Source: Escherichia phage egaa
Length of the DNA: 51,643 nucleotides
Sequence record: NC_049852.1
Strand: one strand, 5' to 3'
The notes beneath the pieces were generated by a model. That model did not search any database. It saw only the letters and a program-made list of their open reading frames with translations, and was not told the origin of the DNA. Below are positions 3,728 through 51,323 of this stretch, in pieces. Both the position numbers and the translations under genes were made by a program. The first letter of the stretch is position 1; each line of letters begins with the position of its first letter.

Positions 3728-4438
3728 ATGTATAAGGGTTTAATTTTCTCTTTGTTTGATGGATCTGGTAAAGCCGTTAAAGATTGGGCTGATGCTGGAT
3801 ATAAATGCATTTGCTTTAATTACGATGATGCTGATCACGGTGATTACCACTCAGTGCGCATAATCCATGACAATATCTTTTACGTTAACGCGTGGATTGA
3901 TGATCTATTCAAATATACCGCAAAACTTGAAAATTGGGGTAAGCCTGATTTTATTATGGCGTTCCCTCCATGCACTAACCTTGCAAATAGCGGATCTCGC
4001 CATTGGGCTAAAAAACGCATTGAGAATCCATCGTTCCAGGATGAAGCCGCCGACACTTGCAAAATAGCGGCGCAAATTGCTGATTATTTCGGTGTTCCGT
4101 ACATGATAGAGAATCCTGTAGGCAAGCTGTCAACGCTATGGCGCAAGCCTGATTATACGTTCCATCCGTGCGATTATGCTGGCTATCTGCCGGAAGATGA
4201 TAAACATCCCGACTTTCCTGATATTATTCCGGCACGGGATCGGTACTTTAAGAAAACATGCCTTTGGACTGGAAACGGATTTGTTATTCCTCCGCGCGCA
4301 ACAATCATCCCTAAAGATGGCGACAAGGATAATCCTGGTTGGGCCAAAACTGGCGGAAAATCGTCTCGCACAAAGATGATCCGCTCCCTCACACCGCGCG
4401 GTTTTGCTCGCGCCGTCTTTGAAGCAAACGCAAAATAG
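3728..4438 (+). CDS. putative DNA methyltransferase (cytosine-C5-like motifs)
   Basis: FSLFDGSG (FxGxG AdoMet motif), FPPC (Pro-Cys catalytic motif), MIENPVG (ENV-like); short for a C5-MTase, family call by motif only. Confidence 0.5.
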   Translation: MYKGLIFSLFDGSGKAVKDWADAGYKCICFNYDDADHGDYHSVRIIHDNIFYVNAWIDDLFKYTAKLENWGKPDFIMAFPPCTNLANSGSRHWAKKRIENPSFQDEAADTCKIAAQIADYFGVPYMIENPVGKLSTLWRKPDYTFHPCDYAGYLPEDDKHPDFPDIIPARDRYFKKTCLWTGNGFVIPPRATIIPKDGDKDNPGWAKTGGKSSRTKMIRSLTPRGFARAVFEANAK

Positions 4439-4478
4439 CACTTTTTGTTAAAAGCCAGGTGTAAAAGCCTGGCATAAT
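4434..4478 (+). promoter_or_regulatory. conserved 20-bp element + 22-nt spacer + CATAAT
   Basis: aatagcactttttgttaaaa 4434-4453 with TAG stop 4436-4438 inside; GC hairpin gccagg-tgtaaaa-cctggc in spacer. Confidence 0.6.
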
Positions 4479-7162: not shown

Positions 7163-7283
7163 AGACTTCATGCACGCAATGTTAACGCTAATTCATTCTG
7201 ACATGCGAGCGTTTAACATATCAGAGCATAATTTGTGTGATGAGGACGGCGTTTTGTTGGTTACTGTAAAGCGTATCGAATAG
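7089..7283 (+). CDS. possible overlapping small ORF (64 aa) ending inside promoter element
   Basis: ORF track; overlaps 6770-7162 by 74 nt; GGAG 10 nt upstream; its TAG is the TAG of the next element; true start uncertain. Confidence 0.3.
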   Translation: MKNCLRQMLIDKILKFCAVSSISHEDFMHAMLTLIHSDMRAFNISEHNLCDEDGVLLVTVKRIE

Positions 7284-7323
7284 CACTTTTTGTTAAAACT
7301 CCCGATCTCGTATCGGGTATATT
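7279..7323 (+). promoter_or_regulatory. conserved 20-bp element + 22-nt spacer + TATATT
   Basis: aatagcactttttgttaaaa 7279-7298; hairpin cccgat-ctcgt-atcggg in spacer. Confidence 0.6.
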
Positions 7324-7608: not shown

Positions 7609-7990
7609 TGCCTTTGCGGTAGGAAAAGTAAAGCATTGACAAAAGACCGCTAAAAATTGCAGCGCAATAGATTATGGGATCGTACCACTTCCTTTGCTCA
7701 CCCTGCACAACCTGGATTTTATCAGCCTTGATGGTATTGGCCTGAATGGTTGACGTAGTGAAATCCTTCTTGCTGGAAGTGTCCACCTTATCAACCGCAG
7801 ATTCCTTTATTGTAGTTTCCTGTTTTGTGCTGGTGTCCTGCTTTGCGGTAACGCCAACGGTCTGCTTTACGTTCTCCGCTCCTGCCTGTGCTGTGATTTC
7901 CGGCTTACTACCGATTAATCCGGTCAGTGGCGTAACGCTTGAACATCCAGACAAAATAACAGCGATAGCGATTATTGATAACTTTCGCAT
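7592..7990 (-). CDS. unimolecular spanin (u-spanin; outer-membrane lipoprotein with C-terminal transmembrane domain)
   Basis: N-terminal lipobox ...AVILSGCSS, Thr/Lys-rich periplasmic linker, C-terminal hydrophobic helix YCAAIFSGLLSMLYF; directly downstream of endolysin as in phage T1 gp11. Confidence 0.7.
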   Translation of the reverse strand: MRKLSIIAIAVILSGCSSVTPLTGLIGSKPEITAQAGAENVKQTVGVTAKQDTSTKQETTIKESAVDKVDTSSKKDFTTSTIQANTIKADKIQVVQGEQRKWYDPIIYCAAIFSGLLSMLYFSYRKGNKKEA

Positions 7991-30368: not shown

Positions 30369-33037
30369 CCCCGCTTAGACATAACAAATTCGTAAACTTC
30401 CCCACCCTGCGTACAGGAACGCTTAATCATATCAGTGAAAATCATTTTTACGCCAGTCTCTAACCCCTTCGGATCGTTTCCGTTATTAATATCAACGCTA
30501 ATCCCACCAATATTAAGGTTTGTTGCTCCTGATGAAACGCCGCCGCCAGTGTATGAAGTGCCGCCAACAACGCCGCCATTTGCATAACCGCGCATCATTT
30601 TGTAAAGGTTTCCAACTCCGATCCGCTTCGTGGCCTCCTTCGTCATGACAAACTCGCCTTTATGAACAACACCTGCTGGCTCATACTTCCCGCCGTCGCC
30701 AGTGTATCCACCAGTTGCAAATCCAACATTTTTAAGAAGGCTTCCAATCGTCCAAGTGTCACCGCCAATCGCACCGGATATGGCATTAAAGATAACCATC
30801 TTTGTGATCATCTGGATAATCATTTGGATGATTGACGTTGCGAAGCTCTTAAAGTTTGCCTTGCCTGTTGCAAGGAATGTAGCCATTTGGTTGGTTAGAC
30901 CGTTGAGCGCCTCGCTTGCAATATCTTGCACGTTGCCGTACATATCCATTGCATCTTGTCCGTAAACCTCCCATGCGTTTTTCGCTCCTGCAATCCAGTT
31001 ACTTCTAAGCTGATCTTCAGTGTCGTAATACTCCTTCAGCTTTGCTTCCATCTGCTGATAAATTTCATCGTCGATACTACCGCCGCCAGCAACATAATCA
31101 GTTCGCAACTTCTTCAACTCAAGCTCTCGCTGGATTTGCAGATCTGTAGCTCCAGACTGTCGCAAGTTCATAGCGTCAATAGCATCTGATGTTTGCTGAA
31201 TGAATTTAAGCCCTTCCTGGTATTGCTTGTTCTTTCTTTGTTGTAAAACAATCTGATCGCCTATCTCGGCCTTTTCTTTTGCCATAGCAATAACTGCTTT
31301 TTGCTCGTTTAGTAACGCCTGTTCAGCCTTTGTCAGCTTGCGTTTGCTTTGCGCTTCCTCCAGGATCTGGATCTGCTTTTCAATGCTCCACAAAGATTGC
31401 CTCTGGCGTGAAATAACATCATTTACAGTTCGGTGCTCTTTCAGCGTTTCAAGTTGCGCCTTGAGAACATATAGCTCCTTATCAAGCTGCTCTGTTGGTG
31501 CTTTTACAACTCCACCAACTTTTTCCTTTTGCTGCTGCGCCTTCTTCGCCTCTTCAAGCTCTTTTCGCCTGAACTCCACGTTCTCAGCCGCTCGCTTTTT
31601 CAACTCTTCGTCTGCTGTCCTTGCTACGTTCTTCTGATCCTCTATGGCTTTGTTTAAAGCCTCTTGCGCCGCTCGAACTCTGTTTAAGGAAAGGTTTTCT
31701 CTGTCGATGCGTGCTGCTCGTTCCGCCATATCCTTATTCGCATCTTTTACAATCTTTCCTATATCCTCATAGGTGTTCTTCGCAAATTGCAGCATTGGAT
31801 TCACATAACCAAGCTCTTTCCCCAGCAGCCCGCCGGACGGTGAAGCATAATCACGTTTTGCTTTTAAGACCGCATACCATGAATCGCCAAGCTCAAGAAC
31901 TTTGTTTTTGTGATCAGCAATTTCATTGTTAAGACTTACAAAACTTGATGCGTTTTTGTATTCGTTTACTTTTGCCTTTGCTTCGTCATAGGTAAATCCA
32001 ACATCGACGAGTTTTTGTATAGCCTCGCTTGCTCCATCCTTAGTGCTTATGTAAGCCTTTGCGATATTGTCTGCGCTCTCTCCTGTCTTGTCAGATAGCG
32101 CCTGGATTCCAGTTGCGATCCGCTCTGCAAACTCACCGGAAAGACCTGTTGCATCCTGAACGGTTTTTGTGATCTCCTTCAGTTGTGCGTTGGCTTTGTA
32201 AGCGTTATATGCTGCATACCCAAGAGCACCAGTCAGCGCCGTCATTCCAACACTTAGCGGCGTGACAAATGTCATTAGCGCTTTAAAAGTATTAGCAACA
32301 CCGCCGAATGAGTCCTTGATTTGCCCACCCTGCTGGATTGCGATCATCCATACTGGCATACCTGAAGCAAGAGAAGTAACAACGTCAGTGATCTGCATTG
32401 GCAATTGCGCCATTGCTTGCTTGTACTGCCCCATAGAAACGCCAAGTTTTGAGGCTTGTTTTTCCTGCTCCTTCATTTTTGCAATAAATGGCGCTGCCTC
32501 TGCACTAACTCCAAGTTGTGCGGCTCTCATTTCGACAAGCTCTGATTTTGTTTTTTCCGCTGCGTCAGCTTGCGCCTGCAATGCCGCAATAAACTTTCTT
32601 GCCTCAGACTCTGCCCTTGCCTTGTTTTTTGCTTCCTCAAGCGCCGCGCGGCCTTCTTCAGTTAGCGCCTTTTTAGTTGCGATCAGTTTGTTTTGCTGCG
32701 TCTCAAGAATTGATCCTAACTCAAAGAATGTATCATCCGGCACAATTCCTTTTTTCCAAAGCGCATCAAGCTGTGTTGCTGCCTGGCGCAACTTATCCAT
32801 TTTGCTTGCTGTCGGATCTATTGCCGACTGAATTGCTTTAAATTCTTGCTTCTGCTTTGCCAATTCCTCAGCCAGTTGTTTGGCTCTTTGTCTTGCAACA
32901 ACCTCTGAATCAACAAAACTCTCAACGCTTCCCTTTGCGTCGTCGTTTGCCTTCTTGAATTGCTGCAAAGACTTTACAGCATTGTTGAGTTGAGAAACAT
33001 CAACCCCAAGCGTCAAGCCTGCGTATTGTTCTGACAT
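30365..33037 (-). CDS. tail tape measure protein
   Basis: 890 aa, long Ala/Gln/Lys-rich coiled coils, Gly-rich C-terminus; between G/GT chaperone and M; RBS tGGAGGattaataATG. Confidence 0.9.
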
Positions 33038-33076
33038 TATTAATCCTCCAGGTAATAAAAAAGCGCCCGTAGGCGC

Positions 33077-33397
33077 TTATTTTGAATGCATCATTTCAAG
33101 TGCTTTTTGCTCCATGATTCGCAAGTCGTTTAGCGCCATCTCGCGATCCTCAACCTTGTAAATCTCAAAAAGCATAGGCAAGACATTATAATCAAATCCG
33201 TAAGCGCCACCGCCAGAACATCTCCATTGCGTTTGCATTGCGCAAAATATATCCCATGATTGCATCATGCTTTCATCAAATATAACCTCTGGCGGATCTT
33301 CTCCTTCATAGTCTGCCCTTGTAAGGCCAACGGCCTCAAGCTCTGCATCTGTCGGCGGTTTCTGATAAAACAGGTAAACCGCCCTTTTTAGTTTTTT
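33077..33397 (-). CDS. T-extension of tail assembly chaperone, expressed as G-T fusion by programmed -1 ribosomal frameshift
   Basis: -1 frame is open from slippery heptamer A_AAA_AAC (33391-33397) to stop at 33077 and contains track ORF 33077-33268; G frame stops 1 codon after the heptamer. Confidence 0.75.
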   Translation of the reverse strand, partial: KKLKRAVYLFYQKPPTDAELEAVGLTRADYEGEDPPEVIFDESMMQSWDIFCAMQTQWRCSGGGAYGFDYNVLPMLFEIYKVEDREMALNDLRIMEQKALEMMHSK

Positions 33398-37950: not shown

Positions 37951-37977
37951 GAGAAACTCCAAATATAAAAAAGGCGC

Positions 37978-38000
37978 TCAGTGAGCGCCATATTTATTAA
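37978..38000 (-). terminator. intrinsic terminator
   Basis: minus strand ggcgctc-act-gagcgcc followed by TTTTTTATATTT. Confidence 0.7.
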
Positions 38001-43859: not shown

Positions 43860-43913
43860 CAAAGACTCATTATAGACAAATTGCAGGCAATAAAAAACCC
43901 GCCATTTGGCGGG
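43860..43913 (-). promoter_or_regulatory. terminator hairpin (cccgcc/ggcggg + T-run) followed by TATAAT: putative packaging-operon promoter
   Basis: minus strand cccgcc-aaat-ggcggg + TTTTTATT then tgtcTATAAT about 25 nt before terS RBS. Confidence 0.45.
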
Positions 43914-43920
43914 TAGTTGT

Positions 43921-44160
43921 TCAATACTTGTATTTTACTTTTTCTGGATTTGTCTTCATAGTGCTGTGAATCCTGCCACCGATTGATAAGTAGTGACCGC
44001 GAACCTGCCAAACTTTCTGATCTTCATCCCAAAACGCTAAAGCAAACTCACCCTTTTTTGACTTATAGCGAACACCAACAGCCACCACGAAAGATACAGC
44101 AACAAAGCCGATTAGAACACCAATGATTAAAGCAACAAAACCAATAATTACAGAACTCAT
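43921..44160 (-). CDS. small membrane protein (79 aa)
   Basis: N-terminal transmembrane helix IIGFVALIIGVLIGFVAVSFVVAV; ATGA overlap with upstream gene. Confidence 0.6.
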   Translation of the reverse strand: MSSVIIGFVALIIGVLIGFVAVSFVVAVGVRYKSKKGEFALAFWDEDQKVWQVRGHYLSIGGRIHSTMKTNPEKVKYKY

Positions 44161-44342
44161 GATATTTTCCTTACAAGATCTATTGAAAACTGGTGAGTGT
44201 CTTGATTAGCGCCGGACAACTCTTTTGCTCTTGCTGCTGCCTCAAGCTCTCCGCGCGCTTCAACCTCACATTCAAAACTTTGTTTGCATGACGAGCAATT
44301 ACGCCCCATCCGTCTGATCGTCAACCTTACCTTGTACATCAT
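44157..44342 (-). CDS. hypothetical Cys-containing protein (61 aa)
   Basis: ORF track; weak RBS. Confidence 0.45.
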   Translation of the reverse strand: MMYKVRLTIRRMGRNCSSCKQSFECEVEARGELEAAARAKELSGANQDTHQFSIDLVRKIS

Positions 44343-44532
44343 CTTTTACGATCTCGCGCTTGATGCAATTGATATTGTGCACTGGGTAAAAGCATTCACC
44401 AATTCGAATGAATTTGCCATCATCACCAATGTCGTCCTCGGATACAGTTACGGTAAAACTGTTGCAGTGGCAGCCATTGAAAGGATGAAAAACAAGACCG
44501 CCAAAAAGAATTGTTAATTTGTACTTTTCCAT
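44299..44532 (-). CDS. hypothetical protein (77 aa)
   Basis: In-frame ATG (codon 27 of track ORF 44299-44610) with RBS tAGGTGAatatATG. Confidence 0.5.
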   Translation of the reverse strand: MEKYKLTILFGGLVFHPFNGCHCNSFTVTVSEDDIGDDGKFIRIGECFYPVHNINCIKREIVKDDVQGKVDDQTDGA

Positions 44533-44678
44533 ATATTCACCTATAAAAAAGGCGATACGTCTTACGGTAAAAACCTGCATATCGCCGTTGTTGCGTGGCA
44601 ACCGCGCCACCCGTTCGGCACTAATGCCGCTCTTATGTAAACGCTGAATATGCTAACCAATCAGGAAATCGTTGTCAA
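44533..44678 (-). promoter_or_regulatory. non-coding region with sigma70-like promoter (TTGACA-17-TAGCAT) followed by hairpin + T6
   Basis: minus strand gaTTGACAacgatttcctgattggtTAGCATattc ... ggcgata-(22 nt)-tatcgcc TTTTTT just before RBS of 44299-44532. Confidence 0.4.
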
Positions 44679-44909
44679 TCATTCGCGGTCAAATGCGTTT
44701 CCCCATCTACCACGAAGATAACCACACAACCAGATGAATTTGGTAATTGTCAGCATTGGCGCAACTGGCTGATAATGTTCGGCAATAATGCCCTTCATGA
44801 CTTCATCAACATACTTCCCGCGCTTTTCAACATCCGCCTTCATTGCCTCGCCGCACTTCTTAGCCTGGCGTTTTGCAGCGTTGAATTGCGCCTCATTCAT
44901 TCCAAACAT
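44679..44909 (-). CDS. hypothetical protein (76 aa)
   Basis: ORF track. Confidence 0.55.
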   Translation of the reverse strand: MFGMNEAQFNAAKRQAKKCGEAMKADVEKRGKYVDEVMKGIIAEHYQPVAPMLTITKFIWLCGYLRGRWGNAFDRE

Positions 44910-45894: not shown

Positions 45895-45940
45895 CACTTT
45901 AACAAATGCCCTCGCGGAAGTTTTAACAAAAAGTGCTATT
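45895..45940 (-). promoter_or_regulatory. conserved 20-bp element (minus orientation); -10 not clearly assignable
   Basis: rc of 45921-45940 = aatagcactttttgttaaaa overlapping the stop of 45939-46226. Confidence 0.5.
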
Positions 45941-47241: not shown

Positions 47242-47286
47242 ATTATAGCGAGGCATTGCGCCCCGCTTTTAGCAATTCGTGCTATT
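47242..47286 (-). promoter_or_regulatory. variant element AATAGCACGAATTGCTAAAA + hairpin + TATAAT
   Basis: rc of 47267-47286 incl. TAG stop of kinase gene; TATAAT = rc of 47242-47247; ATG of 46809-47210 57 nt downstream. Confidence 0.55.
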
Positions 47287-49760: not shown

Positions 49761-49804
49761 CATTATACTTGGCCCCACATTTGAGTTTTAACAATTCGTG
49801 CTAT
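49761..49804 (-). promoter_or_regulatory. variant element AATAGCACGAATTGTTAAAA + spacer + TATAAT
   Basis: rc of 49785-49804; TATAAT = rc of 49761-49766. Confidence 0.55.
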
Positions 49805-50814: not shown

Positions 50815-50860
50815 TATTATGCCTGGTTATCGTTTTTGAGTTTTAACAAAAAGTGCTATT
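50815..50860 (-). promoter_or_regulatory. conserved 20-bp element (minus) + 23-nt spacer + ATAATA
   Basis: rc of 50841-50860 overlapping TAA stop of 50860-51045; hairpin gggcggc-acggcgt-cgccc in leader. Confidence 0.55.
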
Positions 50861-51277: not shown

Positions 51278-51323
51278 TATTATGCCAGGTTTTGCGCCTG
51301 GCGTTTTAACAAAAAGTGCTATT
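51278..51323 (-). promoter_or_regulatory. conserved 20-bp element (minus) + hairpin spacer + ATAATA
   Basis: rc of 51304-51323 exact 20-mer; hairpin gccagg-cgcaaaa-cctggc; leader CATCGAAACGAGA...GAGGA. Confidence 0.6.

Follow-up and report, generated by a model that had tools for sequence, protein, structure and literature searches.

A conserved promoter and a predicted structured leader RNA at the early-to-late gene boundary of Escherichia phage egaa and other T1-like phages

We analysed the 51,643-nt sequence of Escherichia phage egaa (NC_049852.1; hereafter the window), a T1-like phage of the genus Hanrivervirus (Drexlerviridae, Tempevirinae), and focused on its 146-nt spacer at positions 44533-44678. 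All features of this leader and of its neighbours at the locus lie on the minus strand. Comparison with related phages showed that the spacer holds a conserved promoter, predicted to drive a conserved, structured, non-coding RNA that starts with a short sequence box, and that this leader lies at the boundary between a block of small, early genes and the genes leading into terminase. Rfam 15 gave nothing at the gathering threshold in the window and nothing relevant in the region at E-values up to 10, BLAST with the leader region gave matches in Drexlerviridae only, and literature searches found no description of the leader RNA; we regard the predicted leader as a new, unannotated RNA family. 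The initial annotation of the spacer had recognised a promoter and a terminator-like hairpin. Both are present, but it missed what occupies the 65 nt between them, namely the box and two conserved hairpins.

The -35 hexamer TTGACA (44673-44678), which overlaps the end of the upstream gene for a protein of 76 amino acids (aa; stop codon TGA at 44681-44679), is separated by 17 nt from the -10 hexamer TAGCAT (44650-44655). This arrangement has the -35, -10 and spacing of a sigma70-type promoter, with 10 of 12 positions matching the consensus. Judged by its fit to the consensus alone, the promoter does not exceed chance, since 9 kb held 10 promoter-like sites where 16.5 were expected; we take it to be real because it is conserved, not because of the match. 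An IMG/VR pattern scan, together with other fetched loci, yielded 82 loci and 67 distinct copies after the removal of chance hits; TAnnnT occurred at the same position in all 67, with a -35/-10 spacer of 17 nt in 55 and of 18 nt in 12. Since the scan pattern required TTGAC and the box, their invariance there is in part circular, and the proper test is provided by the independently fetched loci, which agree. TTGAC was present in every one of them; BabyEgg deviates, with ACG in place of ACA. The minus-strand promoter TTGACA-17 bp-TAGCAT named in the initial annotation was thus confirmed at 44678-44650. Just upstream of the -10 hexamer lies a promoter-spacer motif, CTGATTGG (44657-44664; family consensus CTGANNGG), which was invariant in an alignment of ten relatives and has the variants CTGACCGG in Webervirus and CTGAGCGG in T1, while the flanking spacer positions vary.

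The 14-nt 5' box, CGUUUACAUAAGAG (44630-44643; also written CGTTTACATAAGAG; consensus CGUNNACANANGAG), begins 6 nt past the -10 hexamer in egaa. The same gap was found in 62 of the 67 copies, and a gap of 5 nt in 5. Given the preference for a pyrimidine at -1 and a purine at +1, transcription probably starts at G 44642. Within the box, invariant and free positions alternate, with a variable position every 2-3 nt and a longest invariant run of 3 nt, a pattern that looks like protein or polymerase contact rather than a base-pairing seed. The fixed distance of the box from the -10 hexamer and the conserved promoter-spacer motif indicate a function tied to initiation or early elongation.

Downstream of the box, the predicted RNA contains three hairpins. 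Hairpin 1 (CGGCA-UUAG-UGCCG; 44616-44629; computed -7.0 kcal/mol) is followed by the linker AACGG (44615-44611); its stem covaries family-wide (CGGC, CAGC, GCUC, GCGC, GCCAC, GCCC and GCGG) and its loop varies in sequence and length. Hairpin 2 (GUGGC-GCGGUU-GCCAC; 44595-44610; computed -8.7 kcal/mol; pair probability 0.94) carries the conserved loop RCGNWW. The distal hairpin, 36 nt long (44551-44586; computed -13.4 kcal/mol), starts 63 nt past the -10 hexamer and is the terminator hairpin in Hanrivervirus. Its arms, GGCGATA (44586-44580) and TATCGCC (44557-44551), belong to a stem that extends to 9 bp (GGCGAUAUG/CGUAUCGCC), above which lie an internal loop (CA/GUAAGA), GG/CC pairs and a U-rich variable apex; CCGUAAGACG within it (44567-44558) is invariant. 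A T6 tract follows directly (44545-44550; T5 to T9 in close relatives), so that the hairpin has the form of an intrinsic terminator, a GC-rich stem and then a U-tract. The earlier claim of such a hairpin plus T6 immediately before the ribosome-binding site (RBS) of the next gene, which starts at ATG 44532, was therefore borne out, and the stem covaries. The predicted products in egaa are an RNA of about 98 nt, from about 44642 to about 44545, and a read-through mRNA. For an RNA starting at +1, the conserved structure was also the minimum-energy structure (-33.6 kcal/mol). With slightly different ends, an alternative fold in which the 5' box pairs with the 3' interior of the distal hairpin had the minimum energy; it lost this rank when the RNA started at +1, its covariation score (0.022) equalled that of shuffles, and it was rejected.

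Selection for this structure was apparent from covariation. In an unbiased MAFFT alignment of 17 distinct terminator-bearing copies, RNAalifold independently predicted hairpin 2 and the distal hairpin, with compensatory changes in 12 of 16 pairs. With hairpin 1 added by hand for the pair counts, 96.8% of cells were paired, compared with 26-52% when the partners were slid by 1-3 columns, and 13 of 21 pairs had changed on both sides, including 6 of the 9 in the distal lower stem. The covariation score was 0.468 as against 0.208, and none of 500 shuffles reached it. One pair of the distal hairpin is U-G in 13 of the 17 copies and C-G in the rest, and several other pairs use G-U, which indicates that the selected molecule is RNA of the minus strand and not duplex DNA. 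A family-wide alignment of 32 copies was fitted to a covariance model, so that its pair counts lean towards the structure; with this limit, hairpins 1 and 2 were 97.8% paired (18-49% when slid), with 79 double-change cells and a covariation score of 0.719 against 0.235. Hairpin 2 behaved identically in both alignments: all cells were paired, and 4 of 5 pairs had changed on both sides. The covariance model built from the 17 copies matched the window only once (116 bits, E = 2e-26) and recognised the T1- and TLS-type copies at 33-43 bits; no second copy was found in the egaa genome with this model, and motif searches gave chance matches only.

The same stretch could in principle encode an N-terminal extension of the downstream protein, as a 103-aa open reading frame (ORF) starting at GTG 44610 is open in the window and is annotated in SFP17 and G29-2. 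In relatives, 17 nt that form a small hairpin of their own are inserted at the apex of the distal hairpin, and 2 nt are missing from the loop of hairpin 1; a 17-nt insertion and a 2-nt deletion, neither a multiple of three, fall inside the proposed extension. Furthermore, BabyEgg and grams both have a closed frame ahead of the ATG; in grams it closes 39 nt before the ATG and lacks an in-frame start. These indels and the closed frame show that the GTG ORF is not a gene. Substitutions track base-pairing and not codons, and ATG 44532 is preceded by a good RBS; we consider a coding function for the leader to be next to impossible. The earlier statement that the region is non-coding stood. A leader peptide ending at the UAA of CCGUAA was also rejected, as the 17-nt insertion shifts its frame. 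Five fetched loci overlay the leader with a GTG-extended coding sequence, and the other records examined leave the region blank; SFP17_055 (fetched locus 2000-2311) and G29-2 gp23 (1990-2292) are GTG-start versions whose reading frame crosses both hairpin 2 and the terminator hairpin. Annotations should drop the GTG-extended ORF and gain a non-coding RNA or regulatory feature.

The element is widespread among T1-like phages. The 1.7 kb around the locus shared 96% identity with Escherichia phage phiE31-2 and 90-94% with pSf-1, haarsle, grams and G29-2, and BLAST showed that the entire spacer is kept in 129 phage records; with its four main subtypes as queries, 129, 74, 68 and 348 phage records were obtained, or about 620 in GenBank. 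The 76-aa protein, present in 835 phage records, served to fetch records of other genera; the RNA did not. The same element followed the gene for this protein in Henu7, in Stevie and LL5 (Tlsvirus), in T1, in Rtp and in two Weberviruses. In each fetched copy, a TTGAC promoter and the box 6 nt past the -10 hexamer preceded hairpin 1, which a linker (AAC or AAG) separated from hairpin 2 with its RCGNWW loop, and CCGUAA was present in the last hairpin. The flanking protein was only 35-54% identical across the genera that keep the element. In the ten-relative alignment, the spacer was conserved as a whole while the downstream gene changed. The first gene after the leader differs even among close relatives, and elsewhere its place is taken by tRNA-Arg or tRNA-Ser; this interchangeable cargo argues for an effect on transcription rather than on the translation of one gene. 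No Rfam match was obtained for the T1, Rtp, TLS, Webervirus, Henu7 or LF82-11 copies. The 2024 re-annotation of TLS does not list the leader promoter and has no feature in the equivalent gap, 7765-7948 (PMC11447400).

The lineages differ most at the 3' end of the element. Hanrivervirus, Warwickvirus and the Henu7 type carry a U-tract, as do some Webervirus copies; it reads T5-T9 or TTTTAAC, with U6-U9 in Hanrivervirus and Warwickvirus. Most Webervirus copies have the degenerate form ATTTACA, and of the element as a whole Webervirus has kept the promoter and box, hairpin 1 with the AAG linker, and a terminator-like hairpin, but nothing else. A short conserved stretch, with no U-tract, joins the last hairpin to the RBS in T1, TLS and related types, and in the T1, TLS, Rtp and LF82-11 types A(U/C)UCA is conserved at this place, ahead of the RBS or tRNA. 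As the U-tract is missing from the T1- and TLS-type copies, neither a terminator nor a stand-alone small RNA (sRNA) is the ancestral or common function. The shared function would be that of a promoter-proximal leader. The conserved last hairpin, with the same CCGUAA(G) at the 3' side of its loop, seems to have been elaborated into the egaa terminator in a lineage-specific way. The suggestion in the initial annotation of a 90-100 nt non-coding RNA is accordingly supported in part: the egaa anatomy and the predicted length fit it, but the lineage-specific U-tract speaks against such an RNA as the common function. In Rtp, a tRNA-Arg(tct) gene directly follows the last hairpin (fetched locus 1295-1371), and in LF82-11, a tRNA-Ser gene follows 8 nt after it (fetched locus 751-838). 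These tRNAs sit downstream of the element and outside it. Insertion of tRNA genes in two separate lineages suggests strong transcription of the site and, in these phages, release of the leader by RNase P. ARAGORN was run on the window and on 15 related loci and detected neither a tRNA nor a tmRNA.

The surrounding gene order runs, in the direction of transcription, from the small-gene block through the 76-aa gene (44679-44909; phrog_303, called "inducer of pleiotropic effects" in some records), which is the synteny anchor for the element, across the 146-nt spacer to genes for proteins of 77, 61 and 79 aa. The 77-aa gene, with its RBS AGGTGA (44542-44537), occupies 44299-44542. The gene for the 61-aa basic protein (44157-44342; phrog_2919) comes first after the leader, or is among the next genes, in all lineages tested but Rtp, whose fetched locus gave no match to it. 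The 79-aa gene encodes a membrane protein with DUF7299. Beyond it lie a second, canonical terminator (ACCCGCC-AAAT-GGCGGGT plus T6; 43914-43897), 57 nt before the small terminase gene (ATG 43840), and then the large terminase, portal, head and tail genes. An equivalent of this second terminator is annotated in G29-2 and corresponds to T28 in TLS. The six proteins neighbouring the leader matched no functional family in Pfam or PHROGs, and homologue searches returned close relatives only (3 and 7 proteins).

We tentatively favour, at somewhat less than even confidence, the explanation of the leader as a checkpoint of transcription elongation between the early and late genes, acting as an attenuator or antitermination site. 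Host RNA polymerase would start at about 44642, and the nascent RNA would fold in the order of box, hairpin 1, hairpin 2 and distal hairpin. A fraction of the polymerases would stop at the U-tract near 44545 and yield the RNA of about 98 nt; the remainder would read into the three small genes, past the terminator at 43914-43897 and into the terminase and structural genes. Transcripts from upstream early promoters would meet the same leader terminator, so that the checkpoint would set the amount of transcription entering the late block. The unpaired conserved nucleotides (5' box, AAC linker, hairpin 2 loop and GUAAGA loop) would be contacted by RNA polymerase or a protein; for the latter, the small basic protein encoded just downstream is the leading choice, as a candidate partner only. 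Such contact could alter termination at the leader terminator and perhaps at those further downstream, much as in lambda PR'/6S RNA/tR', nut or put. A polymerase or protein contact in early elongation is proposed because the box spacing is fixed, the spacer motif CTGANNGG is conserved and the box positions alternate. A more specific proposal, which we hold as doubtful, is that the leader is the loading site of a processive antitermination system, formed by the RNA alone or with the 61-aa protein, through which host polymerase started at the leader promoter would be made to read through the leader terminator and some ten terminators of the terminase-to-tail operon. If true, this would explain late expression without a phage polymerase, a sigma factor or a known antiterminator.

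The distribution of promoters and terminators around the leader bears on this proposal. A 21-nt direct repeat, ATAGCACnnnTTGnTAAAA, described for phage TLS (PMC11447400), has 23 copies in the window, against 3.1 expected. Perfect repeats cluster in two small-gene blocks, including the block upstream of the leader, and run along the direction of transcription. Copies lie, among other positions, on the minus strand at 45921-45939, 47267-47285, 49786-49804, 50841-50859 and 51304-51322 and on the plus strand at 1002-1020, 1879-1897, 2385-2403, 4435-4453 and 7280-7298. The 3' end of the repeat, TTGTTAAAA, reads as a -35 hexamer, with TATAAT about 18 nt downstream (e.g., 49791-49762), and the repeats are probably the UP-like and -35 part of early promoters. 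Promoters of this type are frequent upstream of the leader and nearly absent from the late block, and the leader promoter is not one of them. Canonical terminators punctuate the late block downstream of the leader, and terminator-like sites are enriched (35 against 19 expected; 33 against 20 in another scan). At the minus-strand terminators 41723, 37989, 36445 and 33078, the next RBS and ATG follow within 15-23 nt and leave no room for a promoter, and the TLS terminators T30 to T36B lie 9-17 nt before the next start codon. Because there is no promoter room after these late terminators, the late genes depend on terminator read-through. The hairpins 37973-37989 and 33061-33078, inside the minus-strand late block, were called as terminators on both strands.

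Several observations weigh against the checkpoint explanation. The U-tract is absent from the T1, TLS, Rtp and LF82-11 copies, and termination within the leader would not be the conserved feature. The distal hairpin was not listed by our terminator scan, for which it is too long and irregular (loop limit of 8 nt), and the annotation of G29-2 with ARNold did not call it either. An antiterminator or other alternative pairing lacked covariation support; thus, the anatomy fits the attenuator put forward in the initial annotation, but a two-conformation attenuator was not borne out. Terminator 20490 (minus strand), in the recombination/SSB operon, likewise abuts the next gene, as do those at 31210 and 32250 in G29-2, and this operon has no copy of the leader, so that read-through there needs none. 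Promoter-like sequences follow some terminators (33800 to 33771 and 23381 to 23354), and a perfect TATAAT without a -35 hexamer follows the terminator at 43914. No member of a known antiterminator family was found among the neighbouring proteins, and the 61-aa protein has no diagnostic fold. Promoter, start site, termination and read-through have all been deduced from sequence.

Other explanations account for parts of these data. One, which we judge unlikely but still a serious competitor, is a stand-alone, trans-acting RNA of about 98 nt that binds or sequesters a host or phage protein or pairs with mRNA, its leader position being incidental; it would be released by the terminator in egaa, by RNase P before a tRNA and by processing elsewhere. 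Its own promoter, structured body and U6-U9 terminator in Hanrivervirus and Warwickvirus resemble those of enterobacterial sRNAs, RNase P would free it where a tRNA follows the last hairpin in Rtp and LF82-11, and conserved loops and junctions with covarying stems would suit a protein-binding RNA. However, T1- and TLS-type copies run into the RBS without a terminator, most Webervirus U-tracts are degenerate, and the 5' box holds no contiguous seed; complementary sites within the phage (10, against 4.3 expected) resembled chance matches, the best lying inside a gene, and action in trans needs no fixed promoter spacing. A post-transcriptional module in the 5' untranslated region, acting on processing, stability or ribosome loading (RNase E or RNase P entry, or a standby site), appears considerably less probable. 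It would fit the invariable position of the element directly upstream of an RBS or tRNA, the conserved A(U/C)UCA before the RBS or tRNA in the T1, TLS, Rtp and LF82-11 types, and the interchangeable cargo. RNase E decay depends on the 5' end, and a 5' hairpin protects; the 14-nt single-stranded 5' end of the leader is the opposite of such a protective hairpin. Such a module would also leave the fixed -10 distance and the promoter-spacer motif unexplained, and in egaa a U-tract terminator stands between the element and its cargo.

The spacer might instead be an ordinary juxtaposition, in which the terminator of the early operon and the next promoter share the space with no dedicated RNA function. 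T1-like genomes are indeed terminator-dense, with terminator-like sites enriched, and early transcripts from the repeat-type promoters need an end point. The order is wrong for this, as the promoter precedes the terminator; the intervening 65 nt contain two covarying hairpins and invariant unpaired blocks across genera, and lineages without the U-tract retain the RNA. We therefore regard juxtaposition as very improbable. Hardly any weight, and slightly less again, falls on a DNA-level signal such as a packaging site, replication origin or operator array. This would agree with a location about 0.7 kb upstream of the terminase genes and with the conserved promoter-spacer motif, but the G-U pairs are conserved on one strand only, and the helices show Watson-Crick and wobble covariation while the loop sequences are free. 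Moreover, the pac site of TLS has been placed at the start of its record, about 7.7 kb upstream of the spacer (PMC11447400).

Among known systems, the layout of the leader works most like lambda PR'/6S RNA/tR', with features of nut and putL, and is a member of none of them. As in lambda PR'/qut/6S RNA/tR'/Q, a constitutive-looking sigma70 promoter and an intrinsic terminator some 100-200 nt further on stand before packaging and structural genes, and the gene order of the leader likewise places a promoter-proximal terminator, giving a short RNA, ahead of the late genes. Lambda PR' yields a short RNA unless the polymerase is made terminator-resistant, and the leader is alike in layout; it is alike, too, in having promoter-fixed elements that include a spacer motif, where Q-binding elements lie in lambda. 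In contrast, no Q or N homologue was found among the six neighbouring proteins, the whole genome being unscanned, and positions 3-8 of the box (TTTACA, TAGACA, TAAACA or TGAACA) do not form a -10-like pause, A2/T6 not being kept. Covarying RNA hairpins are central in the leader and have no role in qut, and the leader terminator is missing in several lineages, unlike tR'. The resemblance to lambda nut/N lies in a linear box followed by a hairpin, with a small basic protein gene just downstream, and in a box that is conserved across genera while hairpin 1 varies, as would be expected from binding of the box by a host factor and of the hairpin by a phage protein. The boxA sequence is CGCUCUUA; the leader box is unlike it, the loop of hairpin 1 has no conserved GNRA-like, purine-rich pentaloop, and nut sites lie at no set distance from the transcription start. 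A folded beta-beta-alpha-beta domain sets the 61-aa protein apart from an arginine-rich disordered peptide such as N.

DapZ and MicL are enterobacterial sRNAs with their own promoters and terminators shared with the upstream mRNA. The leader is similar to sRNAs of this type in having a promoter at the end of the upstream gene, a conserved 5' end, a structured body and a shared terminator, but it lacks a contiguous seed, has no terminator in many lineages and continues into an mRNA or tRNA. A contiguous seed with complementary targets, as in Hfq-type sRNAs, was not found within the phage, host targets being unsearched. As in riboswitch and attenuator leaders, covarying stems frame conserved junctions and loops 5' of an operon, with a terminator module at the 3' end in the egaa lineage; however, the leader has no Rfam aptamer class, conserved alternative pairing, P1-type closing helix or surviving leader peptide. 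With HK022 put it shares the form of a cis-acting structured RNA just past a promoter and at the head of a terminator-containing operon, and an anatomy that strictly requires no dedicated protein. HK022 putL starts at about +2, and put consists of two long stems in a V-shape of about 70 nt with a triplex (PMC9378689), whereas the leader has stems of 4-5 bp and a third, long hairpin. There is no sequence similarity to put, BLAST matches being confined to Drexlerviridae, and the leader occurs once per genome and not twice. In HK022, put suppresses downstream terminators without protein factors, through the zinc-binding domain of the beta' subunit. Two weaker resemblances were set aside: GGCGATATGCAG agrees by eye with about 7 of 10 positions of the RfaH ops site, is without the key G5, is not conserved in the Henu7- or T1-type copies and is a lead only; CAACAAC after hairpin 2 is too weakly boxA-like and is not conserved in T1.

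The leader is the only family-wide conserved structured RNA that we found at the early-to-late boundary of T1-like phages. T1 is a classical coliphage, and its relatives have been sequenced by the hundreds, among them therapy candidates and fermentation contaminants. The leader offers a mutable handle of about 100 nt on whether attenuation or antitermination governs late transcription with unmodified host RNA polymerase. Should the RNA act in trans, more than 600 sequenced phages would share a new phage small RNA.

Some minor observations concern the neighbouring sequences. A perfect TATAAT at 43872-43877 (minus strand) lies 20 nt past the hairpin of the 43914 terminator and 14 nt past its U-tract; it has no recognisable -35 hexamer, the sequence 17 nt upstream being the U-tract itself, and it could be a weak or factor-dependent terminase promoter. 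The stretch near the small terminase gene gave only sub-threshold, terminator-like matches in Rfam (isrK, Trp_leader and similar). The isrK match before the small terminase gene scored 14.9 bits in the window (43892-43954, minus strand) and 29.5 bits in a Webervirus (fetched locus 1475-1540), against a gathering threshold of 50, and probably reflects resemblance to a terminator hairpin. Finally, about 20 records labelled "UNVERIFIED Campylobacter phage" (MG0656xx) are Hanriverviruses that are 92-95% identical to the egaa region; these phages probably bear an incorrect Campylobacter host label, unless they arose by contamination or carry-over.

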